Notes: a model not told the origin generated them from the letters alone. Positions 29,732 through 48,914 are shown, numbered from the stretch's first letter. The stretch: DNA of 64,000 nucleotides from an uncultured Hyphomicrobiales bacterium (GCA_964625235.1 CAZVAZ010000001.1:857-64856), one strand, 5' to 3'. Made by a program: numbers and translations.

Positions 29732-29754
29732 CTACCTATAATAAGGAACTGGAT

Positions 29755-30672: not shown

Positions 30673-30683
30673 GGATTATAATC

Positions 30684-31589
30684 ATGACATCAAAGACCAC
30701 CATACAAAATCCATCAACACCAAATCTGCGGCCAACGCCGCGCCAGCAGATGATTGCCCGGATCAAAACGCATTACAGCCTTCAGTTTGGTGCAGCGGTC
30801 CTGATTTTTATCATTCTAATGGCGGTTTTCGCGCCCCTCTTGGCGCCGCATGATCCCTATGCCCAGGATCTTTCCAACAGACTGATCGACCCTATCTGGG
30901 GTTCCACTGGCACCTGGGTGCATCCTTTGGGAACGGATTCACTGGGCCGTGATTATTTGAGCAGATTGATGTACGGGTCGCGTATCGCGCTCTTGATCGG
31001 GTTTTCCGCCATGTTGATTTCCGGTGTGATAGGGACGGTACTAGGGGTGTCTGCCGGTTATTTCGGCGGTCGGGTTGATACCGTGATCAGCTTTTTCATT
31101 CTCAACAGGCTGTCATTACCGGTCACACTGGTGGCGCTCGCGGTTGTTTCCGTGATTGGAAGTTCCTTAATTGTTGTGGTGACGGTGCTTGGATTGCTGA
31201 TCTGGGACCGTTTTGCCGTTGTGTTGCGCGCCGCCACGCTGCAGGTGCGCAACATGGAGTATGTTGCTGCAGCCGAGGTTTTGGGCGCAAGTACACCACG
31301 CATTATTTTTAAAGACATCCTGCCCAATATCAGTAATCACCTGATCGTTGTGGCAACCCTTGAAATGGCCCATGCCATTCTGCTTGAGGCGGCTTTGTCG
31401 TTTTTGGGAATGGGCGTACAGCCACCGCTTCCATCGTGGGGGCTGATGGTATCGGAAGGTCGTGATTTCATGTTTTTCAAGGCCTGGATGATTACGGTAC
31501 CAGGCGCGGCCCTGTTCCTTCTCGTATTGGCAATCAACCTGCTCGGAGACGGCATTCGTGACGTTACGACACCGGAGGGGAGGAATTAG
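30684..31589 (+). CDS. ABC transporter permease (DppC/OppC type)
   Basis: LLAPHDPY and LGTDSLGRDYLSRLMYGSR motifs, plus YVAAAEVLGAS. ATG 30684 follows GAGGA; the track start 30669 is a TTG. Confidence 0.9.
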   Translation: MTSKTTIQNPSTPNLRPTPRQQMIARIKTHYSLQFGAAVLIFIILMAVFAPLLAPHDPYAQDLSNRLIDPIWGSTGTWVHPLGTDSLGRDYLSRLMYGSRIALLIGFSAMLISGVIGTVLGVSAGYFGGRVDTVISFFILNRLSLPVTLVALAVVSVIGSSLIVVVTVLGLLIWDRFAVVLRAATLQVRNMEYVAAAEVLGASTPRIIFKDILPNISNHLIVVATLEMAHAILLEAALSFLGMGVQPPLPSWGLMVSEGRDFMFFKAWMITVPGAALFLLVLAINLLGDGIRDVTTPEGRN

Positions 31590-31590
31590 A

Positions 31591-33231: not shown

Positions 33232-33266
33232 GCCGGTCAAAAAATGCTGAATTCGTTCATGACATC

Positions 33267-34694
33267 ATGAGTACAAAAATGAACAACATTATCGAAACAA
33301 GGGCTGTGGATATTGTCTCAGCACTTCGCCGCGAAGAAATCTCCCCGCACGACCTTCTTGATGCGCTTGAAACACGCATTGGCGAGGTTGATGGCGATGT
33401 TAATGCACTGCCGATACTGTGCTTTGATCGCGCAAGAGTTCACGCCGATCAATTGCTGCGCCTGCCAGTGGAAAATCGGGGAACCCTGTGTGGCCTGCCG
33501 ATACCAATCAAGGATTTGACACATGTCAAGGGTATGCGGACGACATTCGGTTCTCCTGTTTATGCCGATCATATCTCGGATCACAGCGATGTAATGGTTG
33601 AGCGGCTGGAAACCGAAGGCGCCATTGTCTTTGCCAAATCCAACACACCGGAATTCGGTGCCGGTGCCAATACATTCAACAAAGTCCTTGGCACCACCCG
33701 CAATCCATATGATCTGTCCCGGTCCGTTGCGGGGTCATCCGGTGGTGCTGCCGCATCATTGTCAACGGGTACGGCCTGGTTGGCGCAAGGCTCTGACAAT
33801 GCCGGCTCTCTTCGTAATCCGGCAAGTTTCTGCGGTGTTGTTGGACTGCGGCCATCACTGGGCCGAGTGGCACAGGGGCCGACCCCCAATCCTTATCAAA
33901 CACTTGCGGTGAGCGGTCCAATGGCCCGTAATGTTGAGGATACCGCGTTGTTTCTGGATGCTATGTCAGGCGAAAACCCACAAGATCCCATGTCCCTGCC
34001 AAAGCCGAAATCGTCGTTTCTGCGCCAAGCGCGCCAGCGTCGCAAACCGGTCAAAATCGCTTTCAGTGTCGATCTTGGCATTACACCAGTCGACCCGGAG
34101 ATCGCTGAAATCTGCAGAAGTGCTGCTCTTCGATTCCAGGGCATTGGCGTGATTGTTGAAGAAGCTGCACCAGATTTTACCGGTGTTCATGAAACCTACC
34201 AGACATTGCGTGCCTACGATTTTGCATCAGCCCGCGGTGAACTCCTGAGTTTTCACCGGGAAAGTTTGAATCCTGATTTGATCGATAATATTGAAAAAGG
34301 CATTAACCTGACAATGGATGATCTTTTGAGGGCAAAACGGGCTCGGGTTGTTCTTCGTCAAAACGCCATGAGCTTTTTCGAAGATTTCGACCTCTTGCTG
34401 ACACCCGCCACAATCGTTCCTCCTTACCCGGTTGAACAACGCTACGTGGAGAACTGCAATGGCGTTGCCTTCACCAGCTATATCGATTGGCTGGCCATCG
34501 CTTACGCAATAACACTTGTTTCCCTGCCCGCATTGTCACTGCCGTGCGGCTTCACCAAAACCGGCCTGCCTGTCGGCTTGCAGATAGTTGGCCGTGCTCG
34601 CGGTGAGGCTGACCTGCTTGCAGGTGCTTTGTTGCTGGAAGAAGCTCTCGACCTTGACCTTCGACCCGTCAAGCCAGCCAAACAACTACATTGA
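33267..34694 (+). CDS. Amidase-signature (AS) family amidase
   Basis: GGSSGGAAA signature (VAGSSGGAAASLSTG) and the GLPIPIKD motif. The start among 33228, 33267 and 33279 is uncertain. Confidence 0.85.
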   Translation: MSTKMNNIIETRAVDIVSALRREEISPHDLLDALETRIGEVDGDVNALPILCFDRARVHADQLLRLPVENRGTLCGLPIPIKDLTHVKGMRTTFGSPVYADHISDHSDVMVERLETEGAIVFAKSNTPEFGAGANTFNKVLGTTRNPYDLSRSVAGSSGGAAASLSTGTAWLAQGSDNAGSLRNPASFCGVVGLRPSLGRVAQGPTPNPYQTLAVSGPMARNVEDTALFLDAMSGENPQDPMSLPKPKSSFLRQARQRRKPVKIAFSVDLGITPVDPEIAEICRSAALRFQGIGVIVEEAAPDFTGVHETYQTLRAYDFASARGELLSFHRESLNPDLIDNIEKGINLTMDDLLRAKRARVVLRQNAMSFFEDFDLLLTPATIVPPYPVEQRYVENCNGVAFTSYIDWLAIAYAITLVSLPALSLPCGFTKTGLPVGLQIVGRARGEADLLAGALLLEEALDLDLRPVKPAKQLH

Positions 34695-35109
34695 GAAGTC
34701 AGTAGCCAAGCATGAAATGGAAATACAGCCAGACCGCATGCTGGATGTTTAGTCCCGGAGCGGTTCAGCTTGGCACGGACGGTAAATACCTGCTGTTGTC
34801 CTATGACCAACTCAAGATAGCTCCCCTCACGGTTGAACGCACACAAGATCAGCCGACAATGAAATCAGGAAGGAAAAGTTCATAAACGGAACAGGACCTG
34901 ACAGACACAACCGCAAAAACCGGTAACCGTCAGATCAGGTCCGCACCACTACATTTTAATGGGTCAATTCCACCGTGCCTTGCTTTGAATGACTGCCGGG
35001 GAAAACTGATAGCGTATTTAAAAATTTTGTTCATTTTCTAAACGTAAAATGTATTGATAAATCTGACCAGCAAGTTAACCTGACGATAGCGAAGGATGCC
35101 CGGTTGACC

Positions 35110-36915
35110 ATGTCTGAAACATTGAAAATCATCACTGAACACAACACCCCTGGGTCCCTCCTGTTCACTTTTGCAATTATTACTGATACGCATATTCGCC
35201 CGGCGCAAGGCGATCAGTCATCGCCTTTTGCGGTCAATGAGCTTGCCAATGGGCGGGCGCGTTTTGCTGTTGCGGCAATCGCCCGCCATGCACCGGATTT
35301 TACCATTCATCTGGGCGACATGGTGCATCCGCTGCCAAATTTGCCGAGCTATGGATCGGCTGCGGATGAAGCTCTGTCGATCCTGGAGCCGATCGCCAAA
35401 GGTCTGCGTTTCGTTGCGGGCAATCATGACGTTGGCGACAAACCCATGCCGGCCACGCCGGCGGCCCCGGTCGATCAACACAGTATCAAAATTTACCAGA
35501 AATATTTCGGTCCCGGCCACTACAGTTTTGACCATGGCGGTGTGCATTTTGTTGTCGTAAATTCGTCCCTCGTCAATGCCGCCAACAGCTTTGAGGAAAG
35601 CCAGCGACAGTGGCTTGAAAACGATCTGGCCCAGAACACAGCTGAGCGGACAATCCTGTTTTCCCATTACCCGCCGTTCATCGATGATGCATCAGAACCG
35701 TCGCATTATGACAATTACGGCGAGCCGGGCCGCTCGTGGCTGCTTGGTCTGCTTGAGCGCTACAATGTGGAGGCGGTTTTTTCCGGTCATGTGCACCAGT
35801 TTTTCTATAACCGCATTGCGGACATGAAACTTTACTGTCTGCCGCCGACGAGTTTTACCCGGCAGGATTACAGTGAGCTTTATGGTATTGGTCCGGCCGA
35901 CCAGTATGGCCGCAATGATACCGGCAAATTCAGCTATGCGATGATAGATGTCTTTGAGCGCGGACACCGGCTCAGGGTCTATCCTACCGAAGGTCAGGGC
36001 CTCGATGAAGGTGTGGCTATTGAGCCGGATACCGTTCCGGGCGGTGGAACAATGAACCCCGTCACCGTGCATTTGCGTCACGGCTGGGCGAGGTCGATGG
36101 ACATGCCTTACAACGGCCCGATGGAGGAGTTTTCGCGCAAGCGCGCCCGCAACGACTATCCCTTGTTGCGCCTGTGGCAGATGGGCATCAGCCGCATCAG
36201 AACACCGCTGTCCGATTTGCTTGACGAGGAGTATGGTGCCCGGGTTCAGGATTATCACGCCGCTGGATGCAGCTTTACTTTTTTCTGCGCCGGGGTGCCG
36301 GAGAAAACCGTATGGGAGCAGTGCTGCCAAAACGCTGAATTGATTGATGCGGTGGAGTTTGTTTCCTGCGCTGCTGACCTTTCGGACATAGGCGATGCTG
36401 TGAAAGCTTTTGAGCCTGGAACAGGGCCAGAGATTCACCTTGGAAAATTTCATTCCTCTGCCGATGAACCCAAACACGGCTCAACATTCGCCCATTCGGT
36501 GAGCTTTGGATTCAAATGGGACGACCGCCACGTGCTGCTTGCGGCACTGCGAGGAATTGACCCTACCGGCCTCATCAAGGCGCTGGTCTTTCAGGTTAAT
36601 CTCGAGGATGATCTTGCCACGCGGCTGGGTGAGCTGGATCAATTGGCAAACGACAATGGGGTGAAGGTGGTCGCCAATATCCGCTTCGCCAATGTCAACC
36701 CGGCAATTGCCAGCTTTGACGATGAGATAATTTCAATGCGCGTCGAAGAAGCCGTAAACCTTGCGTCCGGCTTAAAATACACCACCCTGCAATTCGATAC
36801 GTTTGCTGATATTGACCGTGGTTACCATCCCCGCCACGGGTTACTTGATGGGCGTTATAATTTTCGCCGTGCCGGTCGCGTGTTGATGGAGCGCTTTAAT
36901 CGAACTCCGGCTTAA
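35110..36915 (+). CDS. Calcineurin-like metallophosphoesterase fused to a ~300-aa C-terminal domain of unknown function
   Basis: MPE motifs ITDTH, HLGDMVH, GNHD, FSHYPP and GHVH lie in the first ~250 aa. I do not recognise the remainder. Confidence 0.7.
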   Translation: MSETLKIITEHNTPGSLLFTFAIITDTHIRPAQGDQSSPFAVNELANGRARFAVAAIARHAPDFTIHLGDMVHPLPNLPSYGSAADEALSILEPIAKGLRFVAGNHDVGDKPMPATPAAPVDQHSIKIYQKYFGPGHYSFDHGGVHFVVVNSSLVNAANSFEESQRQWLENDLAQNTAERTILFSHYPPFIDDASEPSHYDNYGEPGRSWLLGLLERYNVEAVFSGHVHQFFYNRIADMKLYCLPPTSFTRQDYSELYGIGPADQYGRNDTGKFSYAMIDVFERGHRLRVYPTEGQGLDEGVAIEPDTVPGGGTMNPVTVHLRHGWARSMDMPYNGPMEEFSRKRARNDYPLLRLWQMGISRIRTPLSDLLDEEYGARVQDYHAAGCSFTFFCAGVPEKTVWEQCCQNAELIDAVEFVSCAADLSDIGDAVKAFEPGTGPEIHLGKFHSSADEPKHGSTFAHSVSFGFKWDDRHVLLAALRGIDPTGLIKALVFQVNLEDDLATRLGELDQLANDNGVKVVANIRFANVNPAIASFDDEIISMRVEEAVNLASGLKYTTLQFDTFADIDRGYHPRHGLLDGRYNFRRAGRVLMERFNRTPA

Positions 36916-38356
36916 CCCCGGGTGGCATGGAAAATCCCAGATCGCCGCGCTCAATAACAGCTGCGCGCCCGCCTTTTTCCTGCAGCAGTTTTTTCTGCGC
37001 CTCTTTGGCTTCGGTGTCGATGGCATGAGGGTCGCAAACCTTAAACAACTCAGCCGTCAACTCGTCCAGAACAGGCTTGGCGTTGGCATCTTCTGCAATA
37101 TCATTGAGTTCTTCCGGGTCGCTTTCAAGGTCAAACAGTTGCGGCGGGTAATGGGCGTAATAGATAAGTTTGTATGCGCCTTTGCGGATCATGTAGGCGG
37201 CGGTTTTCGAGCCCATGGCGTGGTATTCGGAAAATACCGCGCGGCTCTTTTCCTCCCCGGCAATCAGCCGCATCACATCGATGCCCGGGTGGTCATCACT
37301 GATGGTATCGGGTGAAGCTTCGCCTGCGCATTGCATGAAGAAGGGATAAAGATCGAGTAGATTGGTCGGCGTATCCACTGACATGCCAGCGGGAATATCG
37401 GGACCGCTCATGATTAGCGGCACGCCTACTGATTCCTCCAGCATGGTCGATTTGCCCCATAGCCCGCGTGCTCCCAGATTGTCACCATGATCAGAAGTGT
37501 AAACAACGCGCGTAGTGCCGTTCAACCCGGCATCCTCCATCGCCTGAAGAACGTTGCCGATATTGTTGTCGAGAAAACTGCACAGGCCGAGGTATCCCGC
37601 CTGGGCGCGCTTGACCATATCCGCAGTTTCAAAAAAATCATCATAGGCGAAGGATTTACGGTAGTCCTCCAGGAACGGATGCAGCGGCTCATTACGCGAA
37701 GCGTAAAGTTTTGGCTCCGGTAAATCCTGATCATAATAAGGGTAAAAGTATTCCGGTGGTGCCGTTAGTGGAAAATGCGGGCAGACGAAGGAAACAAACA
37801 GCACCCAGGGCTTGTCGGTATATTTTCCGGCCTCCTCACGCAGCCACACCTGCGCGCGCGCCGCAATCTCGCGATCATAGGTGGTGTAAACAGATTCGCC
37901 CGGCCCCGCCATGCGGGCCATCTTGTAGGCCCCGGCACGTTTGGGCATATCCTCATCACGCACAAGGCCGAGTAAATCGCCGTCGCCATCAATAATGTGC
38001 ATACCGATCTGCTCGTCGGAAAATCCGTTGTCATCGTCACTGGAATGAAAATGAAGCTTTCCGATTGAAACCACCTGATGTCCGCGATCGCGCAACAGCG
38101 CATGCCAGTTGGGCAATGAGCCGTCAAACGGCATGGCATTATCCCACAGTCCGATCTGATGGACATATTTACCGGTTGCAAAAGCGCCCCGTGCCGGGAC
38201 ACAGACCGGACACGGCGTGTAAGCTGCCTCAAACCGCGTACCTTCTTGCGCCACCCGGTCAAGGTTAGGAGTTTTGACAATGTCATGACCATAGCACCCC
38301 GCCAGCCTGCGGTTGTGCTGGTCAGACATGATGATGATAAGATTGCTCGGTTTCAT
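36896..38356 (-). CDS. Cys-type (formylglycine) sulfatase
   Basis: NLIIIMSDQHN and the active-site signature CPVCVPARGAFATGK (C-x-P-x-R). The 3' end overlaps the convergent gene by 20 nt. Confidence 0.85.
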   Translation of the reverse strand: MKPSNLIIIMSDQHNRRLAGCYGHDIVKTPNLDRVAQEGTRFEAAYTPCPVCVPARGAFATGKYVHQIGLWDNAMPFDGSLPNWHALLRDRGHQVVSIGKLHFHSSDDDNGFSDEQIGMHIIDGDGDLLGLVRDEDMPKRAGAYKMARMAGPGESVYTTYDREIAARAQVWLREEAGKYTDKPWVLFVSFVCPHFPLTAPPEYFYPYYDQDLPEPKLYASRNEPLHPFLEDYRKSFAYDDFFETADMVKRAQAGYLGLCSFLDNNIGNVLQAMEDAGLNGTTRVVYTSDHGDNLGARGLWGKSTMLEESVGVPLIMSGPDIPAGMSVDTPTNLLDLYPFFMQCAGEASPDTISDDHPGIDVMRLIAGEEKSRAVFSEYHAMGSKTAAYMIRKGAYKLIYYAHYPPQLFDLESDPEELNDIAEDANAKPVLDELTAELFKVCDPHAIDTEAKEAQKKLLQEKGGRAAVIERGDLGFSMPPGVKPEFD

Positions 38357-38358: not shown

Positions 38359-40644
38359 CTACCTGAAAATATAAATCGGGCTCGACCAGGCCTGGTGGCC
38401 ATCCTCCTGGGTAACTCTGACATAGAGGGCATTGTCGCCCGTATCAGTTAGTTCTATGTCCTGCTCAATTGTCATGGCGAGGTGAGAATTTTCGTTTGGC
38501 AAACGGAACAGCCGCAGCTTGCGGCCAAGCTTGCCTGCATCGAACACGATATCATCAAAGCCAATATCAGCAATATCAACGCTCTGCGTCATCACCGGTG
38601 TCTGAATATTGATGCTTCCGTTTTTTGCGTCTTCAAGCCAGGCATCAAAACCGCCATAATTCCCGGTGGTAAGCGCCTTCCATTGCAGCAAGTTGCCGCT
38701 GGTCATATCGAGTTTTTTGTCTTTGTTGAGAAAGTTGATGCCGCTTGCCCGGGTCATGTTATTGCCCTTGATTTCGGCCTGACCATCCCAGATAACCTGG
38801 CGGAAACGGCCACGATATTCAGCACCCTCCCAGATCACCCGGATGCGATTACCCAACTCGTCTTCGGTGTAGGGGCGATGTGTCGATACATGCTCAAGAC
38901 CGTTGAAAATATCAACCCGTTCGATTGGTGCCGAGCCGACCACATCAATTTCGAGCACCGTACCACCTGAGTGCAGTTGCACGATATCGCCCATTATGGC
39001 GACGCGTGACGGTCTGCCTTGCGCGTCTCCAAGTGCGGGATCATCATGGTAGAGTTGTCCCTCTGCTTCGAAGCGCGCTTTAACATCAAGGATCATGCGG
39101 TTGCCGGTGGTGCCATAGTGGTGCCGCTTGCGGTAACAGTCAAAAATTGCTGCCCGCGTCAATTCTGATGTGAGGAAGCAGGTAAGCCCGCCAATGGCGC
39201 CGAATTTGGCTGAGCCGGGGTAGCTTGCACCGGGCCTGCCCTTGTGGCCATCGGAGTTGCAGACAACGCCCATGCGATAGCCCATCTCAAGGGCATCGTG
39301 CAAAATCCACTCAAAAGTTCCCCATGAGGAATGGACTTCAACAGCTGTTTCCACCCGGCCATCATGAGCCACTTTTACGTCAGCATAGCGGCCACCGCAG
39401 TGCGCCAGACAGACGGCATCTTCGCCATTTTCGATGAGCTTTTCAAACAACTCGGCAGCGGTGCCGCAATCGGTTTCAGCATCGCTAAGATCGTTTATGA
39501 GGGCGTGCGAGGAGCGGTAAATTGGCCTGTCTTCTGTCATGTAGAACACGTTGCGGTCGCCACCGAGAAATGTGTTTCCCGACCATTCATAGCCGGGCAG
39601 GGTGACGAATTCTCCCGGCGCGTTAAACTCACCAATCAAGTTGTTGAGTTCGGCCCAGAATTCTTTGGTGATCTGAAAGTCGTTGCCCTGATGGCCGGTG
39701 ACATCGACAAACGCCTTGTCGCGCGCGAATTCGAGGTACTCACGTGCACTGCCGGTGCCGATAGTTTCCTCGCTCTGGCCATGCACATCGCCCCAGAAAT
39801 GCAGCAACTGGTCCGGAGTTTGCTCAACGATGCGGATGGGATTGCTCACCGCCAGTATGTCACCGGCGTCATCCAGAACTTCAATAGTGTAGACCCCTGG
39901 CACATCCGCCTTGAGCCCCTCCACTACATGCGAGAATTCACCGGGAACAAACGACACGCTTTCGGGCAGACCCGGCAGGGGCGGGGTGCAGCGTAACTTG
40001 ACGCTTGCGCTGATTTGGTTGCTCGGATTATCCCATTTATCCTCAGCCTTCAAACAAAGCCGGAACGGCTGCCCCACCGGATGCATTGTCGGTGCAATGG
40101 CGCGCCAGGTCTCGGGCGGACCCGGTACAATGGAGATTACCGGCTGGTCAGGTAAGGAGGCATAGGTGTAGGTGGCGATGGCATCGACGAGGACGCGGAA
40201 TTCGAATGTGTCTTCGCAAAATGTCTGCAGCCGCATGCCGGGTGAGCCGCCGCTCTGGTCGCCAAAGACGATGGTGATTGTATCACCTTCCTTCATGAAG
40301 CCGTTGACGATTTTGATATAGAGCGTTCTGTCCCAGGGTCTGACATTGCCCTTGGGGTCGTAGCGGACCTCCAGTTTGGCATTGTTGCTGGCGGTGACAG
40401 TGGTGTAACCCGGTGCGGTGGGATCATCGAACTGGGGATTGGTCTGGTCAGAGGCGAAGCGCGACACAATTTTGAGGCTGCCACTGTCATCGATGCCGTA
40501 AAAGCCCGCTGTATAGGTAAGTGTAAAGGTAGCCCAGGAGCCAGCCTCAATTGCACCCGATGGCTCTATGGTTGCGGTCCCTGAAAGTTCCAGCGGGATA
40601 TTCCCTGAAAGATTGCCCAGAAACTGGTTATGGCTTGCCTCCAC
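38359..40644 (-). CDS. Large DUF3604/PHP-like putative metal-dependent hydrolase with an N-terminal beta-rich region
   Basis: Ordered motifs resemble DUF3604: FWGDVHGQSEET, GYEWSGNTFLGGDRNVFY, LAHCGG, EVHSSWGTFEW, CNSDGHKGRPG, HYGTTGNRM. In-frame GTG 40644 lies 7 nt after AAGGAG; the track start is 40713. Confidence 0.55.
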   Translation of the reverse strand: MEASHNQFLGNLSGNIPLELSGTATIEPSGAIEAGSWATFTLTYTAGFYGIDDSGSLKIVSRFASDQTNPQFDDPTAPGYTTVTASNNAKLEVRYDPKGNVRPWDRTLYIKIVNGFMKEGDTITIVFGDQSGGSPGMRLQTFCEDTFEFRVLVDAIATYTYASLPDQPVISIVPGPPETWRAIAPTMHPVGQPFRLCLKAEDKWDNPSNQISASVKLRCTPPLPGLPESVSFVPGEFSHVVEGLKADVPGVYTIEVLDDAGDILAVSNPIRIVEQTPDQLLHFWGDVHGQSEETIGTGSAREYLEFARDKAFVDVTGHQGNDFQITKEFWAELNNLIGEFNAPGEFVTLPGYEWSGNTFLGGDRNVFYMTEDRPIYRSSHALINDLSDAETDCGTAAELFEKLIENGEDAVCLAHCGGRYADVKVAHDGRVETAVEVHSSWGTFEWILHDALEMGYRMGVVCNSDGHKGRPGASYPGSAKFGAIGGLTCFLTSELTRAAIFDCYRKRHHYGTTGNRMILDVKARFEAEGQLYHDDPALGDAQGRPSRVAIMGDIVQLHSGGTVLEIDVVGSAPIERVDIFNGLEHVSTHRPYTEDELGNRIRVIWEGAEYRGRFRQVIWDGQAEIKGNNMTRASGINFLNKDKKLDMTSGNLLQWKALTTGNYGGFDAWLEDAKNGSINIQTPVMTQSVDIADIGFDDIVFDAGKLGRKLRLFRLPNENSHLAMTIEQDIELTDTGDNALYVRVTQEDGHQAWSSPIYIFR

Positions 40645-40752
40645 CTCATTCTCCTTTAATTTTCCGGCCCGGTTCAGGCACACAGATGGCCACCGGGCGA
40701 AATGCAACAACATTACACCGTAAATACGGAATTCTTATCAGTTATGCCCCTC

Positions 40753-41616
40753 TCAGGCCGCAGCAGCCTGGCGCAATGCTGCACCTTTGATCGTCGTTCG
40801 ATGCATGGTTCGTTCATGTGCAGAAAAATCGTAAGGCGTGGCACAGTGCATCGTACAGCGGTTATCCCACATCACAATGTCACCGGCTTGCCATTTGTGG
40901 GCATAGATAAATTCAGGCTGAACGGCGTGAGCGTAGAGCCGTGCCAGCAGAGCCTCGCTTTCGGCAGGTTCCATCCCCTTGATTGAAACCGTGAACCCCT
41001 CATTGACGAACAACGCCTTGCGTCCGCTTTCAGGATGCGTGAGCACAATTCCATGCTCAGTGTCGCGCCACTGGGCCAGTTGCTCCGCCGTTGGTGCGGC
41101 ACGTTTTCCACCTTCGGCCATTTTCATATAGCGGTGGCGGTAGGAATGAATGGCAGTTCGCCCTTCGATCAACGCCTTGGTTTCATCATCCAGCGCCGCA
41201 TATGCTGCGTACATGTCGGTATAGAGCGTATCGCCACCTTCGGGTGGCACGATAAGGCCGTGCAGTATCGACCCCATCGGCGGAACAAGCTCATATGTCA
41301 TGTCGGAATGCCAATAGGCACCGCCGTTATCCAGCGGCTTGACACCGCCGCGCCCGCGGTTGGACAGCACGAGTATTTCGGGATGGGCAGGTAAAAGCCA
41401 ATCCTTTACGGTGTGATCCTGCAGGTCGCCTAAATGGCGGGAAAAGGCAATATGTTGTTCTTCGGTAATTTTTTGACCGCGCAGCACCAGAATTGAATGG
41501 TCCCACCACGCCTGACGGATTGCTGCAATTGTTTTGGCATCCACAGGCTTTGACAGGTCAATGCCCTCGACTTCAGCAACAAAAGCATTACCTGTCTTTT
41601 TCAACGACATTGTCAT
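40753..41616 (-). CDS. TauD/TfdA-family Fe(II)/2-oxoglutarate dioxygenase (taurine dioxygenase or AtsK-like)
   Basis: WHSDMTYELVPPMGSILHGLIVPPEGGDTLYTDM (H-x-D facial-triad region) and a C-terminal CTMHCATPYD region. Confidence 0.85.
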   Translation of the reverse strand: MTMSLKKTGNAFVAEVEGIDLSKPVDAKTIAAIRQAWWDHSILVLRGQKITEEQHIAFSRHLGDLQDHTVKDWLLPAHPEILVLSNRGRGGVKPLDNGGAYWHSDMTYELVPPMGSILHGLIVPPEGGDTLYTDMYAAYAALDDETKALIEGRTAIHSYRHRYMKMAEGGKRAAPTAEQLAQWRDTEHGIVLTHPESGRKALFVNEGFTVSIKGMEPAESEALLARLYAHAVQPEFIYAHKWQAGDIVMWDNRCTMHCATPYDFSAHERTMHRTTIKGAALRQAAAA

Positions 41617-41625: not shown

Positions 41626-42528
41626 CTAACGCTGCATGCCCCACCGGTTAACGGTGCGACGCTCAATATTCCTGAACACTATATTTTCTACGAAAAATCC
41701 AATCAGAATGACCATAAACAGACCGGCAAAAACGCCGTCTGTATCGATGTTCTGGCTCGATTCGAAAATGTACCAGCCAAGGCCGCCGCTGCCTGATGAT
41801 GCACCAAACACCAACTCGGCACCAATCAGCGTTCGCCAGGCAAACGCCCAGCCAATTTTCATGCCGGCAAGGATTGAGGGTAAGGCTGCGGGAACGAGAA
41901 TTTTCCAGACATAGCCGAAACCTTTCAAGCCATAATTTCGCCCGATCATCCGCAAAGTCTGGCTTACACCTTCAAAGCCGCTGTGGGTGCTGAGGGCCAC
42001 CGCCCACAAAACCGAGTGGATGAGAACGAACACCAGGCTTGCTGTGCCAAGGCCAAACCACAGCATGGCCAAGGGCAAAAGAGCAATGGCGGGTAACGGA
42101 TTGAACATGGCGGTTGACATGGAAATAAAGTCACTGCCAAACCGTGAAACAGTCGCCCACAGGATCAGGATAGCGGCCAGGAACAATCCGGCAGTGTAGC
42201 CGATGAGCAATACTTTTATCGAAAACCAGACCTTCCAAATGAGATCGCTGTAGAACAGATCCCTGATCAGCGTCGAAAAAGACACCCAGAAACTCGGCAG
42301 CATTAAAGGTTCGACATCCAATCCAACCGTATAGACCTGCCAGGCAACGACCAGACTGAGCAGAATGGTGAACTTGCGAACGCCGTCGATATTCCAGATG
42401 CGCTCAAGCGTTGACAGTTTGCGCGCAACTTCAGTCGTTTGCGCCTGTTCAATACCTGAAACTTCAAATTCCGGACGGAAGACCAGTTGCGGAATTGAGT
42501 TTTTTTCATTTTTTACCGGAGTGTTCAT
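41626..42528 (-). CDS. ABC transporter permease, SsuC/TauC family (second of two)
   Basis: MFNPLPAIALLPLAMLWFGLG core. ATG 42528 overlaps the upstream stop (ATGA). Confidence 0.85.
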   Translation of the reverse strand: MNTPVKNEKNSIPQLVFRPEFEVSGIEQAQTTEVARKLSTLERIWNIDGVRKFTILLSLVVAWQVYTVGLDVEPLMLPSFWVSFSTLIRDLFYSDLIWKVWFSIKVLLIGYTAGLFLAAILILWATVSRFGSDFISMSTAMFNPLPAIALLPLAMLWFGLGTASLVFVLIHSVLWAVALSTHSGFEGVSQTLRMIGRNYGLKGFGYVWKILVPAALPSILAGMKIGWAFAWRTLIGAELVFGASSGSGGLGWYIFESSQNIDTDGVFAGLFMVILIGFFVENIVFRNIERRTVNRWGMQR

Positions 42529-43424
42529 CGTGCCTGCATCCCCCATTTGCGGATCGTAAGGCTCTCGATTTTGTTAAAGACGACGGTTTCAACCACAACG
42601 CCTACTAAAATGACCATGAACAATCCGGCAAATACATAAGCGATGCGCAAATCCATCTGGCTGGCGAAAATGAACCAGCCAAGACCACCGGACGCTCCTT
42701 CGCTGGTATCCGAGATGGAGCCGCCGAACACCAGTTCGGCTGCAATCAGCGTGCGCCACGCATAGGACCAGCCGATTTTAAGACCCATCAGTATTTGCGG
42801 GAAAGCGGCAGGGATAAGAAGCTTGACGACGTAAACAATACCGCGCAGGCCGTAATTGCGCCCGACCATGCGCTGGGTTTCGCTGACGCTCATAAAACCC
42901 ACATGTGCATTAAGGGCAACCGGCCAGATAACCGAATGCAACAGCGTGAAAATAATAGCATCGGCACCGAGCCCGAACCACAACAGAGCCAGCGGCAAAA
43001 GAGCAATCGCGGGCAACGGATTGAGCATTGCTGTTAGCGTCGAGAGAATATCACTGCCAAAACGCGTTGTCGCCGCGGCTGTGGTCAGCAAAGTTGCAAT
43101 CACGATACCGATTACATAGCCGGTTATCAGTACGGTGATTGAATTCCACACCATATAAAGAAGTTGTTCGCTGAACACGGCATCGGCCAGTGCTAATGCG
43201 GTCGCCGAGAATTTCGGCATGATCAACTCGGAAACACCGCTAAATTGCGAATAAACTTCCCATACGATGATCAGCATCACCAGGATGGAAAGCTTGCGCA
43301 CGGAATTCATGTCCGATATGCGCTCCATCAGCGTCAGTTTGCGCGCAACATCCGCCTTACTGGCTTTGCCAAGGTCGCTGGCCTCAAATTCCGGGCGGAC
43401 AAGAACGTCGGGAATTTTACTCAT
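42525..43424 (-). CDS. ABC transporter permease, SsuC/TauC family (first of two)
   Basis: MLNPLPAIALLPLALLWFGLG core, paralogous to the downstream permease. TGATG overlap with the ATPase stop. Confidence 0.85.
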   Translation of the reverse strand: MSKIPDVLVRPEFEASDLGKASKADVARKLTLMERISDMNSVRKLSILVMLIIVWEVYSQFSGVSELIMPKFSATALALADAVFSEQLLYMVWNSITVLITGYVIGIVIATLLTTAAATTRFGSDILSTLTAMLNPLPAIALLPLALLWFGLGADAIIFTLLHSVIWPVALNAHVGFMSVSETQRMVGRNYGLRGIVYVVKLLIPAAFPQILMGLKIGWSYAWRTLIAAELVFGGSISDTSEGASGGLGWFIFASQMDLRIAYVFAGLFMVILVGVVVETVVFNKIESLTIRKWGMQAR

Positions 43425-44272
43425 CAGCTCTTGTCTCCGGCCTGAATTTCATCTTCCAGGATTCTGTCCGCGAATAACATGTCGTGGATGCGCTGCTGCA
43501 CCCTGGTAAACTCTTTGGTGCCGACATTTTCGTGGTTGAGATCAAAGGCGTTGAGTTCGGCCTTGACCTGACCGGGATGGGGGGAGAGTACCAAAATTCT
43601 GCTGCCGACAATAAGCGCTTCTTCAATGGAGTGGGTTACGAACAGCACCGTAAAGTGGGTGTCCTCCCACAATTGCAGCAGCTCTTTTTGCATTTGCAGA
43701 CGCGTAAGCGCATCAAGTGCTGCGAATGGTTCATCCATCAACAACACGTCCGGCTCCATCGCCATACCGCGCGCTATCGCGACGCGCTGTTTCATACCGC
43801 CTGACAGCATATGCGGATATGTGTCTTCAAAACCACTCAGCTTGACCTTCTGGATATACTCCATGGCGATATCGTTGGCCTCAGCCGCACTGCTGGATTT
43901 ACCACCATTTTGAAGCGCGAAAGTGATGTTTTGCTTGACTGTCTTCCACGGCAGCAACTGGTCGAATTCCTGAAACACCATGACCCGGTCGGGTCCGGGG
44001 TCGGAAATTTCCTTACCCTTGAGACGAATGGCACCTTCCACCGGCTTCATGTAACCGGCAATGCCCTTCAGCAGGGTTGACTTGCCACAGCCTGAGGGGC
44101 CGAGAAGTACGAACCTGTCAGCCGGATAGACATCGAACCCGACGCGATATGTCGCGGTGATCAGATGCTCTTTGGTCTTGTACTGAAGCGTGACCCCGTC
44201 AACCTCAAGAATCGGTTTGGCGTCAGCTGCAGCGGGCGTGGAGCCCGCTGCAGTTGTATTTTTCGTATTCAT
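43424..44272 (-). CDS. ABC transporter ATP-binding protein, SsuB/TauB family
   Basis: Walker A GPSGCGKSTLLK, signature LSGGMKQRVAIARG and Walker B LLMDEP. Confidence 0.9.
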   Translation of the reverse strand: MNTKNTTAAGSTPAAADAKPILEVDGVTLQYKTKEHLITATYRVGFDVYPADRFVLLGPSGCGKSTLLKGIAGYMKPVEGAIRLKGKEISDPGPDRVMVFQEFDQLLPWKTVKQNITFALQNGGKSSSAAEANDIAMEYIQKVKLSGFEDTYPHMLSGGMKQRVAIARGMAMEPDVLLMDEPFAALDALTRLQMQKELLQLWEDTHFTVLFVTHSIEEALIVGSRILVLSPHPGQVKAELNAFDLNHENVGTKEFTRVQQRIHDMLFADRILEDEIQAGDKS

Positions 44273-44275: not shown

Positions 44276-45322
44276 TCAACTACCGTCCTGATCGTAGTTA
44301 TTTTCCCAGTAGTAGTCTTTCCAGCTCGTTGGCATATTCTTGATGGAGCCGATGGAATTCATGAATTTCGCAAATTCCATGGTCCGCTCCGGTTTGTACG
44401 AATACAGCATCTCGTTGGGATCGCCGATCATCTTTTCCACATCGGCAAGTGCCAGCTTGGATTTGGTGAAGCGAACATACAGTGCTGCTGCATCTTTCTT
44501 GTTGCCGTTGATCCAGTCAATCGCCGTGCGATATGAACTGGCAACGCAGTCATAAAGCTTGGGATTGGATTTTTTCCACTTCTCCTTATTATACATGGCA
44601 ACGGTGGAATGGCGTCCGCCGAGCACATCATAAGAAGTGAGAACTGTGCGTATTTTGTCACTTTTCAGTTCCATAAAAGAAGTCGGCAGAGTGGCAAAAT
44701 GGCTCTTCACCGCCTGACCACCGGCCATAAGGGCTGCCATTGCTGAGGGATGTTTCATCGAAACCGTCATCGAATCAAGTTTGAATGCCTGATCTGCGCC
44801 CCATTTTTTCTTTGCGGCCATTTGCAGAACCACCGCCTGTATTGATACCTTGACCGAAGGTGTTGCGATTTTGTGATCTTCCAGTCCGACAAAGTCCTCA
44901 ATCTTGGTGACCCGCGGATCGTTGGTATTCAACTTGAGCGGCATGGCTGAAAGCGTCATCATGGCGCGAACATTAAGGCGACCTTTGGTTTTGTCCCAGA
45001 GCTTCAGAAGCGGGCCCATACCCCCGGCTGCAAAATCCACATTGTCAGACAACAGAGCCTGGTTGACAGCGGCACCGCCACTGAAGCGATGCATGGTGAC
45101 CTTGATGTCGCCAAGGCCGGCTTTGGACGCACAGCCCTGCACCAGCTTTTTGTCAACGACCACATGCATGGGGAGATAAAGCAGCCCGAATTGCTGGGCA
45201 AATCTCACCTGGTTGGCTTCCTGTGCAAAAGCGGTTACCGGTATAGAAGTCCCGGCGATCGCAAGGATTGCCACACTGGCGGCAATTCTGCGAATTGGAT
45301 GTTTTTTAAAAGTTTTCGTCAC
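44276..45322 (-). CDS. ABC transporter substrate-binding protein, NMT1/SsuA-like
   Basis: Signal peptide ending AFAQE. 348 aa periplasmic protein leading a sulfonate/nitrate-type ABC operon. GTG start 8 nt after GGAGG. Confidence 0.75.
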   Translation of the reverse strand: MTKTFKKHPIRRIAASVAILAIAGTSIPVTAFAQEANQVRFAQQFGLLYLPMHVVVDKKLVQGCASKAGLGDIKVTMHRFSGGAAVNQALLSDNVDFAAGGMGPLLKLWDKTKGRLNVRAMMTLSAMPLKLNTNDPRVTKIEDFVGLEDHKIATPSVKVSIQAVVLQMAAKKKWGADQAFKLDSMTVSMKHPSAMAALMAGGQAVKSHFATLPTSFMELKSDKIRTVLTSYDVLGGRHSTVAMYNKEKWKKSNPKLYDCVASSYRTAIDWINGNKKDAAALYVRFTKSKLALADVEKMIGDPNEMLYSYKPERTMEFAKFMNSIGSIKNMPTSWKDYYWENNYDQDGS

Positions 45323-45433: not shown

Positions 45434-46258
45434 TCACTCCGCCGCCACTGCCAGACAATCCGGCCCCACGACACTGAGACCAACGCGCAAGGCTTCGGTT
45501 TCAAAAACATCATGAGGCATTACATTGGCCAGATTGACATCCGGGCCAAATTCCGAAATCAGAAATTTCTTAAGATCATAAACGTCGCAATTATGCGTGC
45601 CGGGTACCCACGGTCCGATCAACTCGAAAATCACCCGGCTCACATCAAGGCCGTCGCGAAGCTCGCTCAGTAACGCCCGGTTGGGCTCACCATTGATGAG
45701 AAGCTCTGCACCCTCCACCAGAACGACGTCCGCTCCGGCATCAAAACATTCCTCCGCCTGTGCAATAAGTGTTGCTGCACCGGTGTCTTCGCTTTTCGAG
45801 CCGACTTCACCATGGACCTCCAGGCCGCAGTCTACGGCAGTACGTATCAGGGTCCGGCGCGCCTGACTGTCCAGCGGCACGCAATTGTCCGACACTTCAA
45901 TTGCTTCGAAACCAAGTCGTTTAGCTTCTTCAAAATACGGTTTCGCGCTTGCCAGGCCTTGCGTTGCATATATATATTCGAGGAACTGGCCGCCGATAAA
46001 CGGATGCACATTATGGTTTTTATACAGCGCTATCTTTTGCAGCAGATAGTCTTCTTCATAAAGCCGGGCAGTGCCGGCAACGAACTTGGCCAGATCGATA
46101 AATGGCGCATTGAGATCGAGCCATTCCCGCTGTGCGCCCAGCGGCAGGCCCCAGTCCATCATCATCGTCACCCCGCTTTTGCGCGGCTTGTCCATGGAGC
46201 GATCAACTGAACGCGGAACAAGGGAGAAAGGCTCCGAATGTGACACAGGACCTGTCAT
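45434..46258 (-). CDS. Phosphosulfolactate synthase (ComA) family protein
   Basis: DKPRKSGVTMMMDWGLPLG...FIDLAKFVAGTARLY...HPFIGGQFLEY...AKRLGFEAIEVSDNCVPL...GLEVHGEVGSK follows the ComA/YitD family pattern. ATGA overlap with the upstream GntR gene. Confidence 0.75.
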   Translation of the reverse strand: MTGPVSHSEPFSLVPRSVDRSMDKPRKSGVTMMMDWGLPLGAQREWLDLNAPFIDLAKFVAGTARLYEEDYLLQKIALYKNHNVHPFIGGQFLEYIYATQGLASAKPYFEEAKRLGFEAIEVSDNCVPLDSQARRTLIRTAVDCGLEVHGEVGSKSEDTGAATLIAQAEECFDAGADVVLVEGAELLINGEPNRALLSELRDGLDVSRVIFELIGPWVPGTHNCDVYDLKKFLISEFGPDVNLANVMPHDVFETEALRVGLSVVGPDCLAVAAE

Positions 46259-47148
46259 TCCAACCTCTCCGAAAGCTCAAGAGGCAGGTGGCCGGGGGGA
46301 AGAAAAACCTGCTGGTAGGTTGCGGGCGCATCCCGGTAGGAGCGGCCAAGGATTTGCCAGAATGTGCCGAAGCTGCCCTCGGCAAGCCCCAGTTTTTTGC
46401 AAACATCAGGAGCGAATTGTTCGCACTGCACCAGATGCTCGAAACGAAAGGTGGGCATGTTGAAGGTCTTGTTGAGGTACTCGCGCAAGGTCAGCCCGCT
46501 CAATTCCTCAGGAGTTCGCTCAAGCAAGGATCCGCATCGTTCGAACGGCAGATAGAACCGGGTAAATCCTTTAAAGCGATCAGCAACATTCATGATGCGC
46601 TCTATTCGAACCAGCGATTTTCCAGTAGTCAGAAATTCCGCCCAGGGAAATTTGAGTCCCTCCGCCACGGGGTCAATTTTCGCAATGGACTCAACGTGCA
46701 GATATATGGGCAGAAGTGGTTGACTATTGTCTGACCTGAAACGGAAATGGAGCAGTTCGACCTTTGCGACCTTTTTTTCATCTGAGAGATCGGCTTGCGA
46801 GGCAGCACCGGAAACGAACGTGCCCATCCCAGCGCGCCGGAAGACAACGCCCTGTTCCACAAGAGCGTTCATTGCCTTTTGAATTGTACCCAGGCTGATG
46901 GGCAGGGTATCCATCAGGTCTCTTTCACCCGGCATCTTTGAACCTGGTCTGTATTCGCCGGATTCAATCGCGTCCAGCATGGCATTGGACAATCGGAGAT
47001 ATTTCGGAACCCTCTCCATGCCAAAGGCCGACGATTGCGAAAATCGCTGTGCAATGGAAGATGTGTTGTGAGTTTGGCTCACGTTCGCATGTCCCCCCAA
47101 TCCCGTTGACACCGGCTCATTAAGGCCATGAACGGGACCTACATCCAT
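46255..47148 (-). CDS. GntR-family transcriptional regulator (HutC/UTRA-like effector domain likely)
   Basis: wHTH YLRLSNAMLDAIESGEYRPGSKMPGERDLMDTLPISLGTIQKAMNALVEQGVVFRRAGMGTFV. The start may be ATG 47019 rather than 47148. Confidence 0.8.
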   Translation of the reverse strand: MDVGPVHGLNEPVSTGLGGHANVSQTHNTSSIAQRFSQSSAFGMERVPKYLRLSNAMLDAIESGEYRPGSKMPGERDLMDTLPISLGTIQKAMNALVEQGVVFRRAGMGTFVSGAASQADLSDEKKVAKVELLHFRFRSDNSQPLLPIYLHVESIAKIDPVAEGLKFPWAEFLTTGKSLVRIERIMNVADRFKGFTRFYLPFERCGSLLERTPEELSGLTLREYLNKTFNMPTFRFEHLVQCEQFAPDVCKKLGLAEGSFGTFWQILGRSYRDAPATYQQVFLPPGHLPLELSERLE

Positions 47149-47169: not shown

Positions 47170-47625
47170 TTATGAGGTGGCGCTGTCAATGTCATCTTGC
47201 GTCCTCCTGATGATTGTCAGTCTGCCCGTGGCCGGATTAACCTCGACAATGTCGCCGGTTTCAACGAAGCCGGTTACATCCTGCTCGAAACGGTCCAGCA
47301 ACGGCAAATCCGCGTAAGCTGCGCCTTGCGCCATGATCGGATTGGCAAAATTGAGCACCAGTGCCTTCGGCCCCATGTTGCGCGACACCATTTCCCTGAG
47401 CATCCAGGCAGAGGCGACACCGCCCTTGGCGGCATTGAGAATGAGGATCCTATCCACATAGCTCTGGCCAAACAGCCTGTGCTGCGGCCGCGAAAACACT
47501 CCCTTCAACCGGTCCAGATCATAACGCGCACTAAAGTTATCCAGCGCTACCAGAGCCTCGCCCTGGACCGTCTGCCCAATCCCGGTATGGCCTTTGAGAA
47601 TTCTGACTTCTGCTGTCGTGGTCAT
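47170..47625 (-). CDS. Aconitase X small (swivel, DUF126) subunit
   Basis: VQGEALVALDNFSARYDLD...GQSYVDRILILNAAKGGVASAWMLREM pattern. 4-nt overlap with the DUF521 gene upstream. Confidence 0.75.
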   Translation of the reverse strand: MTTTAEVRILKGHTGIGQTVQGEALVALDNFSARYDLDRLKGVFSRPQHRLFGQSYVDRILILNAAKGGVASAWMLREMVSRNMGPKALVLNFANPIMAQGAAYADLPLLDRFEQDVTGFVETGDIVEVNPATGRLTIIRRTQDDIDSATS

Positions 47626-48875
47626 CGCACCAGCCTTCCCTTGATGGCTGATTCCACGCAGCTCTCCAGCGATGCCAGCACCGGCTCATAGCCATAACCG
47701 CCAATGATATTGACCAGCTTGGCAGAATTGGTCAGCAGCCGCTTCCATCCGTTCGCTTCGCCGATTTCGCGGGCGCACATCTGATAAAAACAAACGCCCT
47801 GAAGCAGCATGGCACCTGAGCCCTCGATCTTTGCCGTTATTCCCATGCGGTCGGCGGCTGATTTCACTTCCGGCGACACTGTGGCGATAACAGCAACCTT
47901 TTCATTGATGTGGCGGCCATCAAGCAAATCTGCAAGCGCACTAATTTCAATCAGTGACAGTTGCGGAGCAGCGAAAACCACCACATCCACAACGTCGTCG
48001 GCGGGCCAGTAAGCCTCGATAAAGGCATCGATATCGCCTTTGCTGACCGGCGTCATTGTTTGCGGCTGGTCAACCATCGCCACGCGTCCATCGGCAGCTT
48101 CCGGCGTAACACCGGGCATATGAAACAGCGGCGTTGAACCGTAGCTCGCCAGGGCAGCGCCAAAATGCTTGAGTTCGTCCGAATTAGGTCTTTGATCGAG
48201 CGAGGCAAGTTCAATCACCGGCACATCCCAGTAAGAATCCATCTGCCGCCCGATGATACCGCCAAGTGCGCCCCATTGGGCAAAGTCATCGGGACGATCA
48301 CTCACCTTGAATATCTTACTCCCCCGGCGGCATTCGTCGAGATGAAAACCATACCGCGGTGCCCGCCCGGTCAGTGCCGAAGCAAGTGCGGAAGGCCCGC
48401 CCTGAAAATTGGTGCGCGCGCCCTGCACAGAATTAGCATAGATTGTCGAGCCGGTATCACCAAAGGCCAGATGTTCGCCCAGCACCGGCGGCATGATGGT
48501 CTGGTAGTTGATGCAGGTATCTGTCATCATCACACCGAGGGCACGAAAGGCATCAATGGCGCGTTGCTCCAGATCGGCCTGGGCATCACTTTGACCAAGG
48601 GCTTTATAATGCTCGAAATCGATCCCGCGCGGGTCAGTTACCGTCGGTACCTTGACGTGGCGAAGTTCCTCAGGGTACCCCGCCAGCTTTTCAAGGAATA
48701 AAACACCATCCTCACCCAGCGATTCGGTGTCGGCCATCAGATGCACCTGGGCAATCTCGACACAATCTTCGGCATCGAAAAAATTTCCGACCGTGACGAT
48801 CTGCTCCATACCGAACTGGCGCGGCCAGCCGTGTTTGCCTTCGAGCATGTCCTGCTCATATTCACTCAATCGCAT
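47622..48875 (-). CDS. Aconitase X catalytic (DUF521) large subunit
   Basis: MRLSEYEQDMLEGKHG N-terminus and the AFGDTGSTIYANSVQGARTN region are typical of DUF521. ATG 48875 follows GGAGGG; the track start is 48911. Confidence 0.75.
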   Translation of the reverse strand: MRLSEYEQDMLEGKHGWPRQFGMEQIVTVGNFFDAEDCVEIAQVHLMADTESLGEDGVLFLEKLAGYPEELRHVKVPTVTDPRGIDFEHYKALGQSDAQADLEQRAIDAFRALGVMMTDTCINYQTIMPPVLGEHLAFGDTGSTIYANSVQGARTNFQGGPSALASALTGRAPRYGFHLDECRRGSKIFKVSDRPDDFAQWGALGGIIGRQMDSYWDVPVIELASLDQRPNSDELKHFGAALASYGSTPLFHMPGVTPEAADGRVAMVDQPQTMTPVSKGDIDAFIEAYWPADDVVDVVVFAAPQLSLIEISALADLLDGRHINEKVAVIATVSPEVKSAADRMGITAKIEGSGAMLLQGVCFYQMCAREIGEANGWKRLLTNSAKLVNIIGGYGYEPVLASLESCVESAIKGRLVR

Positions 48876-48914
48876 TGACCCTCCAAACCCTCCTGTACCT
48901 GTTGGTTGCATTGC

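Follow-up and report, generated by a model that had tools for sequence, protein, structure and literature searches.

A second clade of ComA-family proteins tied to sulfatase, TauD-like and DUF3604 genes, with a possible role in organosulfur catabolism

The closest described relatives of the gene studied here are the phosphosulfolactate (PSL) synthases ComA from M. jannaschii (1QWG), YitD from B. subtilis (1U83) and XcbB from Xanthobacter autotrophicus Py2 (Xaut_5052). In a stretch of 64,000 nucleotides from an uncultured Hyphomicrobiales bacterium (GCA_964625235.1, CAZVAZ010000001.1:857-64856), here called the window, a gene at positions 45434..46258 on the minus strand, with an ATG start, encodes a ComA-like protein of 274 residues that belongs to the same Pfam family (PF02679) and has the same TIM-barrel fold. 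In an initial annotation this gene had been recognised as a ComA-family homolog that might act in the reverse sense, releasing sulfite from a phosphorylated C3 sulfonate, or alternatively on a different enol-phosphate. The family and the exact open reading frame (ORF) were confirmed here (PF02679, E=7.7e-56). The window protein, however, lies outside the ordinary PSL synthases in an uncharacterised clade of the ComA TIM-barrel family, here named type II, and genes of this clade recur together with genes for a sulfatase, a TauD-like dioxygenase, a DUF3604 protein and an importer.

Sulfonates such as dihydroxypropanesulfonate (DHPS), sulfolactate, taurine and cysteate rank among the principal compounds through which carbon and sulfur are exchanged in the sea. 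To our knowledge only a handful of desulfonating enzymes have been described, namely Xsc, SuyAB, CuyA, the TauD and SsuD types and the glycyl-radical lyases. Among them the (R)-sulfolactate sulfo-lyase SuyAB is the proposed functional analogue of the window protein, as it would share the beta-elimination of sulfite from a C3 sulfonate and a catabolic, transporter-linked locus, but the two-subunit UxaA/altronate-dehydratase fold of SuyAB was not found in the window protein, which has the ComA fold. The L-cysteate sulfo-lyase CuyA and the sulfoacetaldehyde acetyltransferase Xsc likewise desulfonate in the catabolism of C3 and C2 sulfonates; CuyA uses pyridoxal phosphate and Xsc thiamine diphosphate, and both are unrelated to the ComA-like protein in sequence and mechanism. 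The HSA32-type or PrpD-linked ComA homologues of plants, a Bradyrhizobium plasmid and the tripartite tricarboxylate transporter (TTT) islands of SAR11 also form a non-canonical branch beside transporters. However, they carry an E-x-S-E-D motif and a short G-P-x-x-W loop, and they lie next to genes for PrpD/PrpF and TTT transporters instead of those for sulfatase, TauD or DUF3604. Reverse action of transporter-adjacent ComA paralogues has been speculated upon for SAR11 (PMC11796062), thus the idea is not new. In our literature search no paper on the type II clade or on its link to sulfatase, TauD and DUF3604 was found, nor a described cluster of sulfatase, TauD and sulfolactate genes.

Motifs, phylogeny and predicted structure of the type II clade

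The window protein matched PF02679 with 189.7 bits against a cut-off of 25.2 and covered profile positions 4-240 of 243, which by the Pfam gathering cut-off places it in the ComA superfamily over the full domain. Its score for the NCBIfam equivalog TIGR03849 (EC 4.4.1.19) was 162.7 bits, below the cut-off of 280, and its identity to the two solved synthases (1qwg and 1u83) was 28-30%. It was the only ComA-family hit in its own genome, a metagenome-assembled genome of 3.23 Mb in 535 contigs with 80% completeness. When 1.84 billion cluster representatives (50% identity clusters) were scanned exhaustively with HMMER, the family proved to be small, with 861 clusters at E<=1e-3 and 77 at E<=1e-30.

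An alignment of 106 sequences, comprising 95 full-length library representatives and 11 reference proteins, resolved three motif classes:

Type I: D-K-G after strand 1; E-[IV]-S-D-G; E-[AG]-R-E-S-G-x-G-x-G-[IL]-[YF] after strand 6; a short W-E-A-P-x-K-x-Q-Q after strand 7. Members are M. jannaschii ComA, B. subtilis YitD and Xanthobacter XcbB (all three assayed) and ComB-adjacent proteins of Brevibacillus and Legionella.
Type II: D-[WFYLM]-G; E-[VI]-S-D-N; E-[AG]-A-E-L, the Gly-rich loop being deleted; a conserved insertion of about 11 residues (G-P-W-x-P-G-T...D-V-Y-x-L-K-K-F) after strand 7. This class accounts for 59 of the 106 sequences in the alignment and includes the window protein and the products of plasmid genes from Chelativorans and Arthrobacter.
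Type III: the HSA32/PrpD-linked group including the Bradyrhizobium plasmid gene; motif E-x-S-E-D.

Compared with the assayed synthases, the lysine of D-K-G is replaced by W36 in the window protein (D-W-G), S-D-G has become S-D-N, E-G-A-E-L stands in place of E-[AG]-R-E-S-G-x-G-x-G with the loop deleted, and the insertion after strand 7 is present. The subclade of the window protein additionally carries a new invariant Arg after strand 2 (G-T-A-R). Hence the D-K-G lysine and the R-E-S-G loop, which are common to all three assayed synthases, are both absent, and we infer from the alignment that these two features may define a synthase. Both the D-K-G lysine and R170 are assumed here to be ligand contacts, and the lost Lys and Arg may have bound the phosphate of phosphoenolpyruvate (PEP).

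The window protein has kept the acidic residues that follow strands 4, 5 and 6 in ComA, YitD and XcbB, together with the lysine aligned with K137 of M. jannaschii ComA, which we take to be the proposed general acid/base. It therefore probably has in common with these enzymes an enolate chemistry at C2/C3 of a carboxylate. In the subfamily alignment E121, E151, K155, E182 and E185 were invariant and aligned to E103, E133, K137, E168 and E171 of 1qwg, and the motifs E-V-S-D, E-V-G-S-K and E-G-x-E were invariant in 24 subfamily members. Catalytic roles are assumed for the aligned residues, and the acidic ones are presumed to bind Mg2+.

The phylogeny, a quick IQ-TREE run with SH-aLRT, gave a branch with support of 99 between all type II rows and the remainder, which comprised type I, type III (HSA32-like) and a handful of unclassified rows. 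XcbB and the ComB-adjacent proteins thus fell across this split from the window protein, which did not group with any verified synthase and was placed within a subclade of 26 rows (support 99).

Two further observations concern the family at large. One sub-branch of type II (P0139, P0144, P0162, P0167, P0173) lacks the lysine aligned with K137 and has E-V-G-Q-L, E-V-G-G-V and similar instead; its members may be inactive or use other chemistry. On the Legionella lytica plasmid pLlyPCM2298_1 (L115:3871-6783) a 970-residue protein labelled "phosphosulfolactate synthase" contains the ComA domain at its C-terminus only, and its gene is preceded by an aminotransferase gene and followed by a ComB phosphatase gene.

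The AlphaFold2 model of the window protein (mean confidence, pLDDT, 86.7) is an eight-stranded TIM barrel. In Foldseek it was matched to 1qwg with TM scores of 0.76/0.82 and to 1u83 with 0.73/0.87, the next folds scoring 0.57 or less, and a profile of the window family retrieved 1qwg at 4.7e-38. Every altered position lies directly after strand 1, 2, 4, 6 or 7 in the model and is therefore located on the catalytic face of the barrel. The enolate chemistry has probably been retained and the substrate probably changed, the pocket having been rebuilt.

The gene neighbourhood and its conservation

The genes around the ComA-like gene are as follows:

47170..48911, minus strand: two-subunit aconitase X (small subunit 47170-47625, large subunit 47622-48911; Pfam AcnX and AcnX_swivel)
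46255..47148, minus strand: GntR/HutC-type regulator with UTRA effector domain (Pfam GntR and UTRA)
44276..45322, minus strand: periplasmic binding protein of an ABC importer, weakly SsuA-like (TIGR01728 SsuA_fam, 46 bits, below cut-off)
43424..44272, minus strand: ABC ATPase of the NitT/TauT type, TauB-like (best NCBIfam match taurine ABC ATPase, 216.7 bits, below cut-off)
42525..43424, minus strand: ABC permease 1 (BPD_transp_1), SsuC/TauC-like
41626..42546, minus strand: ABC permease 2 (BPD_transp_1), SsuC/TauC-like
40753..41616, minus strand: TauD-family Fe(II)/2-oxoglutarate dioxygenase (Pfam TauD, E=4.8e-73)
38359..40713, minus strand: DUF3604 protein of 784 residues, putative PHP-like metal hydrolase between beta-sandwich domains (Pfam DUF3604, 45 bits)
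36896..38356, minus strand: Cys-type (formylglycine) sulfatase, choline-sulfatase-like (Pfam Sulfatase; motif C-V-P-A-R..F-A-T-G)
35104..36915, plus strand: calcineurin-like metallophosphoesterase (Pfam Metallophos), convergent on the sulfatase

The TGA stop codon of the GntR gene and the ATG of the ComA-like gene overlap as ATGA, and a Shine-Dalgarno-like GGAGAGG precedes the ComA-like start. Downstream, a gap of 112 nucleotides separates the ComA-like gene from the binding protein gene, and the importer, TauD-like, DUF3604 and sulfatase genes then follow on the same strand. Upstream of the ComA-like and GntR genes lie aconitase X and a biotin carboxylase/CoA-transferase module. For the binding protein no match was obtained in a Pfam scan or a PDB sequence search. 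The TauD-like protein shows the H-x-D and R-x-M-H-R-x-T motifs, and its nearest PDB entries were RdpA (6d1o, 186.6 bits) and TauD (3pvj, 183.9 bits); the closest solved structures of the sulfatase were choline sulfatases (6fny, 212 bits). The DUF3604 protein has the conserved positions D-x-H, H, E, H, H and D-G-H. No relative of it was found by a PDB sequence search, and its AlphaFold2 model, built on a 12-sequence alignment, had a pLDDT of 67.9 with a poor presumed catalytic middle (310-510); a Foldseek search of the PDB with this model gave nothing but Ig-like beta-sandwich noise (TM 0.17 or less).

Conservation was followed in a sample of 99 loci with ComA-like homologues of 46-96% identity to the window protein, retrieved via two peptide patterns. 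When the ORFs of these loci were clustered all against all, the commonest companions were exactly the neighbours in the window. Neighbours were counted by tblastn in those 42 loci that were non-redundant and had 8 kb or more of flanking sequence; this recount replaced a tally of ORF clusters, in which shadow ORFs had displaced real genes in GC-rich loci. TauD-like genes were present in 21 of the 42 loci, the sulfatase in 20 (within 300 bp of the ComA-like gene in 10), DUF3604 in 19 (directly upstream of the ComA-like gene in two, L103 and L105) and the binding protein in 18, and at least one of sulfatase, TauD and DUF3604 was found in 31. The GntR/UTRA regulator occurred in 15 loci and adjoined the ComA-like gene in seven. 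Both the translational coupling to a GntR regulator and the position directly upstream of a sulfonate-type importer and a TauD-like gene, as claimed in the initial annotation, were therefore verified and found to be conserved across loci. Less frequent companions were the aconitase X large subunit (9/42, some without carboxylase genes: L004, L006, L007, L014 and L015), a haloacid dehalogenase (HAD)-type protein (9/42), a family III CoA-transferase (7/42), gamma-glutamyltranspeptidase (6/42), a BisC-like molybdoenzyme (5/42) and the metallophosphoesterase (5/42, the Ectothiorhodospiraceae locus L026 among them).

The order of these genes differed between groups of homologues. At 74-96% identity it was GntR > ComA > importer > TauD > DUF3604 > sulfatase, and at 54-60% identity sulfatase > ComA (> BisC-like), facing HAD < TauD < importer. 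That two such distinct orders exist speaks for selection acting on the set of genes and against synteny that was simply inherited. Distant type II members (40-41% identity) were likewise found directly after a sulfatase gene; look-ups for the deep type II representatives mostly gave contigs of 1-6 kb. As the same neighbours surround homologues of 48-96% identity, their recurrence is far beyond chance.

A direct connection to sulfonates was seen in L105 (48% identity), with the order IclR, SucCD-like CoA ligase, aldehyde dehydrogenase, Xsc, DUF3604, ComA-like, glutathione S-transferase and ABC importer. Its Xsc, two genes upstream of the ComA-like gene, is a true Xsc (925 bits, cut-off 676), and L105 is a recognisable sulfonate-degradation locus. 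Moreover, in four related loci a HIBADH-family gene directly follows the ComA-like gene, its best NCBIfam match being sulfolactaldehyde (SLA) 3-reductase with 256 bits against a cut-off of 348.

Co-conservation with biosynthetic genes of the comB/comC type had been named in the initial annotation as an argument against a catabolic role. No homologues of ComB, XcbC, Ldh_2 (ComC-type), SuyB-like proteins or glycerate kinase were found in the 99 loci, and no ComB (PF04029) hit in the window's own genome, which is 80% complete. Thus no genomic association with comB, comC/comDE or xcbC-E was detected; unlike the genes for ComA, YitD and XcbB, the type II gene never adjoins comB, comC or xcbC and stands with importer, sulfatase, TauD and DUF3604 genes instead. 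No kinase was seen among the annotated recurring neighbour clusters, the glycerate-kinase query being empty in the 99 loci. The recurring HAD neighbour was considered as a ComB-like phosphatase and rejected, since it scores above the equivalog cut-off for L-2-haloacid dehalogenase (TIGR01428). This L-2-haloacid-dehalogenase-type gene adjoins the TauD-like gene, for example at L091:13208-13891 and L099:10805-11479.

The aconitase X large subunit of the window was closest to the mevalonate-5-phosphate dehydratase of T. kodakarensis (7cnr, 175.6 bits). In place of Ser50, Lys52 and Asn79 of TkAcnX, which lie at or near the phosphate site for mevalonate 5-phosphate, it carries Asp, Glu and Asp. As a weak lead, these exchanges suggest that its substrate is not phosphorylated and is perhaps cationic or amino-bearing. 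The recurrent AcnX may act on an enoate/3-hydroxy acid pair.

Several other genes were noted around these loci. In the window an Opp/Dpp-type ABC importer (SBP_bac_5, two permeases and a fused double ATPase) with an amidase lies at 28138-34694 on the plus strand, beyond the metallophosphoesterase, with an IclR regulator at 27189-27986 ahead of it; L004 likewise has an amidase near the ComA-like gene. In the branch of 57-60% identity (L068:10866-13199 and 1779-4718, likewise L069, L080, L084 and L091) a BisC-family S/N-oxide reductase gene (1010 bits, cut-off 1017.55) is found directly downstream of the ComA-like gene. In its vicinity are genes for a 979-residue Fe-S/molybdopterin fusion (PhsA/Fdh-like) and for a membrane protein of about five transmembrane helices, possibly a Soe/Psr-like oxidoreductase. 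A differing context was seen at L023:10874-13738 (66% identity), where genes for an arylmalonate-decarboxylase-like protein, a PEP_hydrolase-like TIM barrel (PF09370) and UPF0261 come after the ComA-like gene. In L026 a Peptidase_M19 dipeptidase gene (5058-6038) precedes the importer, and two TauD paralogues flank a sulfotransferase-like gene (12983-15854). Together with the gamma-glutamyltranspeptidase genes of other loci, the dipeptidase and sulfotransferase genes of L026 hint at glutathione- or gamma-glutamyl-linked sulfur substrates.

Distribution and sulfur genes of the host genome

Three of the four other species of the same genus carry a ComA-like gene, as does one of 36 other families sampled in the order. 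Among 400 genomes of the class that were searched, three distant homologues (35-40% identity) and no close ones were found. A search of genome contigs for related loci gave 11 loci. Two cultured strains have type II genes on plasmids. In Chelativorans sp. AA-79 (NZ_CP120363, L112; protein WP_277367918.1, 59% identity) the neighbours are GntR, amidohydrolases, short-chain dehydrogenases, an aldehyde dehydrogenase, a Dpp-type ABC system, a lactonase and DUF3604; in Arthrobacter sp. ERGS1:01 (L114; protein WP_054009260.1) the gene occurs with a NitT/TauT-type ABC system, a CocE/NonD hydrolase and TrxB/TrxA. Named public records of these proteins carry the label "phosphosulfolactate synthase".

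The window's own genome contains a true Xsc on contig C13 (978 bits), seven TauE-family genes and two SorA-type genes. On contig C191 (L125:2925-5005) there is a SAF-like ORF of 139 residues, a split UxaA-type dehydratase of 389 residues (GD_AH_second and GD_AH_C) and an Ldh_2 gene cut by the contig end, an arrangement that looks like the sulfolactate sulfo-lyase SuyAB with a dehydrogenase of the ComC/SlcC type. The organism would thus appear already to degrade sulfonates via known routes, which fits the catabolic reading of the ComA-like gene. As Xsc and a SuyAB-like locus are present, the ComA-like protein need not act on sulfolactate itself, and with a SuyAB-like pair and Ldh_2 on C191 it probably has another substrate.

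Proposed function and alternatives

The fold, the clade, the motif changes and the conserved neighbourhood are observations; the direction of the reaction, the leaving group and the substrate are what we infer from them. The reading that we tentatively prefer, plausible though short of probable, is that the window protein serves catabolism as a beta-elimination lyase whose substrate is an imported, non-phosphorylated acid that bears sulfur. This compound, an organosulfur carboxylic acid or a close derivative, would enter via the adjacent NitT/TauT-type ABC system and would be sensed by the GntR/UTRA regulator coupled to the ComA-like gene. The metal-dependent, enolate-forming enzyme would then take the alpha-proton and eliminate a sulfur oxyanion from C3, most likely sulfite, with sulfate from an ester as the main alternative. 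This would be the ComA addition in reverse on a substrate without the 2-phosphate, for example a sulfolactate- or cysteate-like acid, and the product would be a 2-substituted acrylate or an enol collapsing toward pyruvate-type metabolites. The sulfatase, the TauD-like dioxygenase and DUF3604 might cut other sulfur or ester bonds of the same family of substrates.

With respect to the initial annotation, its catabolic context was upheld, but the phosphorylated substrate was not: no kinase was seen in the annotated recurring clusters, and the canonical lysine and the Arg/Gly-rich loop are gone. Its alternative, a different substrate, fits better, but the evidence points away from a phosphate ester and not toward another enol-phosphate.

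Several points weigh against a lyase of this kind. The function proposed for type II is deduced from sequence, model and neighbourhood, and the ligand contacts of the D-K-G lysine and R170 as well as the roles of K137 and the acidic residues are assumed. The new invariant cationic residues R65 and K230 might recreate a phosphate site at another place in the pocket, and the Metallophos protein, the PHP-like DUF3604 protein and the sulfatase, a member of the alkaline-phosphatase superfamily, could be phosphoesterases, which would fit a phosphorylated intermediate. Sulfite freed by TauD-type enzymes could feed a synthase. The organism has its own Xsc and SuyAB-like/Ldh_2 locus, and an extra desulfonation route is unneeded for sulfolactate itself. 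No sulfur-related neighbour was found in 11 of the 42 loci; moreover, loci retrieved via two peptide patterns form the sample, and relatives among them are not independent. Finally, all ComA-family members assayed to date are synthases that use PEP and sulfite (PMC9457059).

This last point leads to the canonical alternative, in which TauD-derived sulfite is added to PEP and a non-ComB phosphoesterase (DUF3604 or Metallophos) converts the PSL to sulfolactate. The kept catalytic lysine and acidic residues, and the presence of a sulfite source and phosphoesterase-like genes in the same array, would agree with it, as does the production of PSL by every assayed member (PMC9457059). However, the window protein scores below the TIGR03849 cut-off, lacks the D-K-G lysine and R-E-S-G loop of every verified synthase and falls in a separate clade, the downstream biosynthetic genes are absent from the 99 loci, and the setting is one of an importer and a HutC-type regulator. 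In addition, the SuyAB-like locus of the organism could make the synthesis of sulfolactate futile. Altogether we consider a synthase improbable. The version closest to the initial annotation, in which a kinase phosphorylates sulfolactate and the ComA-like protein cleaves PSL to PEP and sulfite, draws on the same catabolic context as our preferred reading (31 of 42 loci and the Xsc-linked L105), and a similar idea was raised for SAR11 paralogues (PMC11796062). Besides the missing kinase in the annotated recurring clusters and the empty glycerate-kinase query in the 99 loci, it is opposed by the replacement of the canonical residues that accompany use of PSL or PEP, and the acidic residues of AcnX at the phosphate site of TkAcnX do not suggest phosphorylated intermediates; it appears highly improbable.

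The enzyme might instead carry out a related elimination or addition with another leaving group or nucleophile, for example the loss of sulfate by beta-elimination from a 3-O-sulfo acid (such as serine O-sulfate or a glycerate sulfate), or a reaction on a 2-O-sulfo (monoanionic) analogue of PSL or PEP in sequence with the adjacent sulfatase. Among immediate neighbours the sulfatase gene is in fact the most persistent, as it adjoins the ComA-like gene in 10 of 42 loci and does so again in members at 40-41% identity, and the loss of two cationic residues from the canonical pocket would suit a less charged 2-substituent. The L-2-haloacid-dehalogenase-type enzyme in 9 of 42 loci (TIGR01428, above cut-off) and the TauD-like protein, which is no closer to TauD than to RdpA, an enzyme acting on 2-substituted propionates, point the same way. 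Yet no such reaction is known in the ComA family, none of the candidate substrates is an established natural metabolite in these habitats, and the Xsc-linked L105 and the SLA-reductase-like neighbours indicate sulfonates, not sulfate esters. We regard this reading as an unlikely, if serious, candidate. A non-catalytic or regulatory role, for instance as a ligand-binding partner of the GntR regulator, just as plant HSA32 may be non-enzymatic, would agree with the translational coupling to the regulator and with the type II sub-branch that lacks the catalytic lysine. The catalytic-type residues are nevertheless all invariant in the window subclade across 62-96% identity and the gene lies away from the regulator in many loci, which makes such a role very improbable indeed.

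Returning to the non-phosphorylated lyase, a wider proposal can be made, which we put forward as a doubtful but attractive possibility. Type II would be a new class of desulfonating C-S lyase that needs a metal ion only and no organic cofactor and runs a reverse Michael addition on non-phosphorylated C3 sulfonates. With the formylglycine sulfatase, DUF3604 and the TauD-like enzyme it would form a widespread, undescribed marine organosulfur module, in which AcnX may hydrate the enoate to give a net hydrolytic desulfonation.

One branch of the ComA family alone has an assigned function, and here a second, well-delimited branch is tied to operons with sulfatase, TauD and importer genes. The automatic annotation of its members as "phosphosulfolactate synthase" is probably wrong and probably misreports the potential for coenzyme M or sulfolactate biosynthesis in metagenomes. 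The link to type II gives a first functional handle on DUF3604, and the type II proteins themselves are a well-defined candidate, open to direct assay, for a new activity that cleaves C-S (or C-O-S) bonds.

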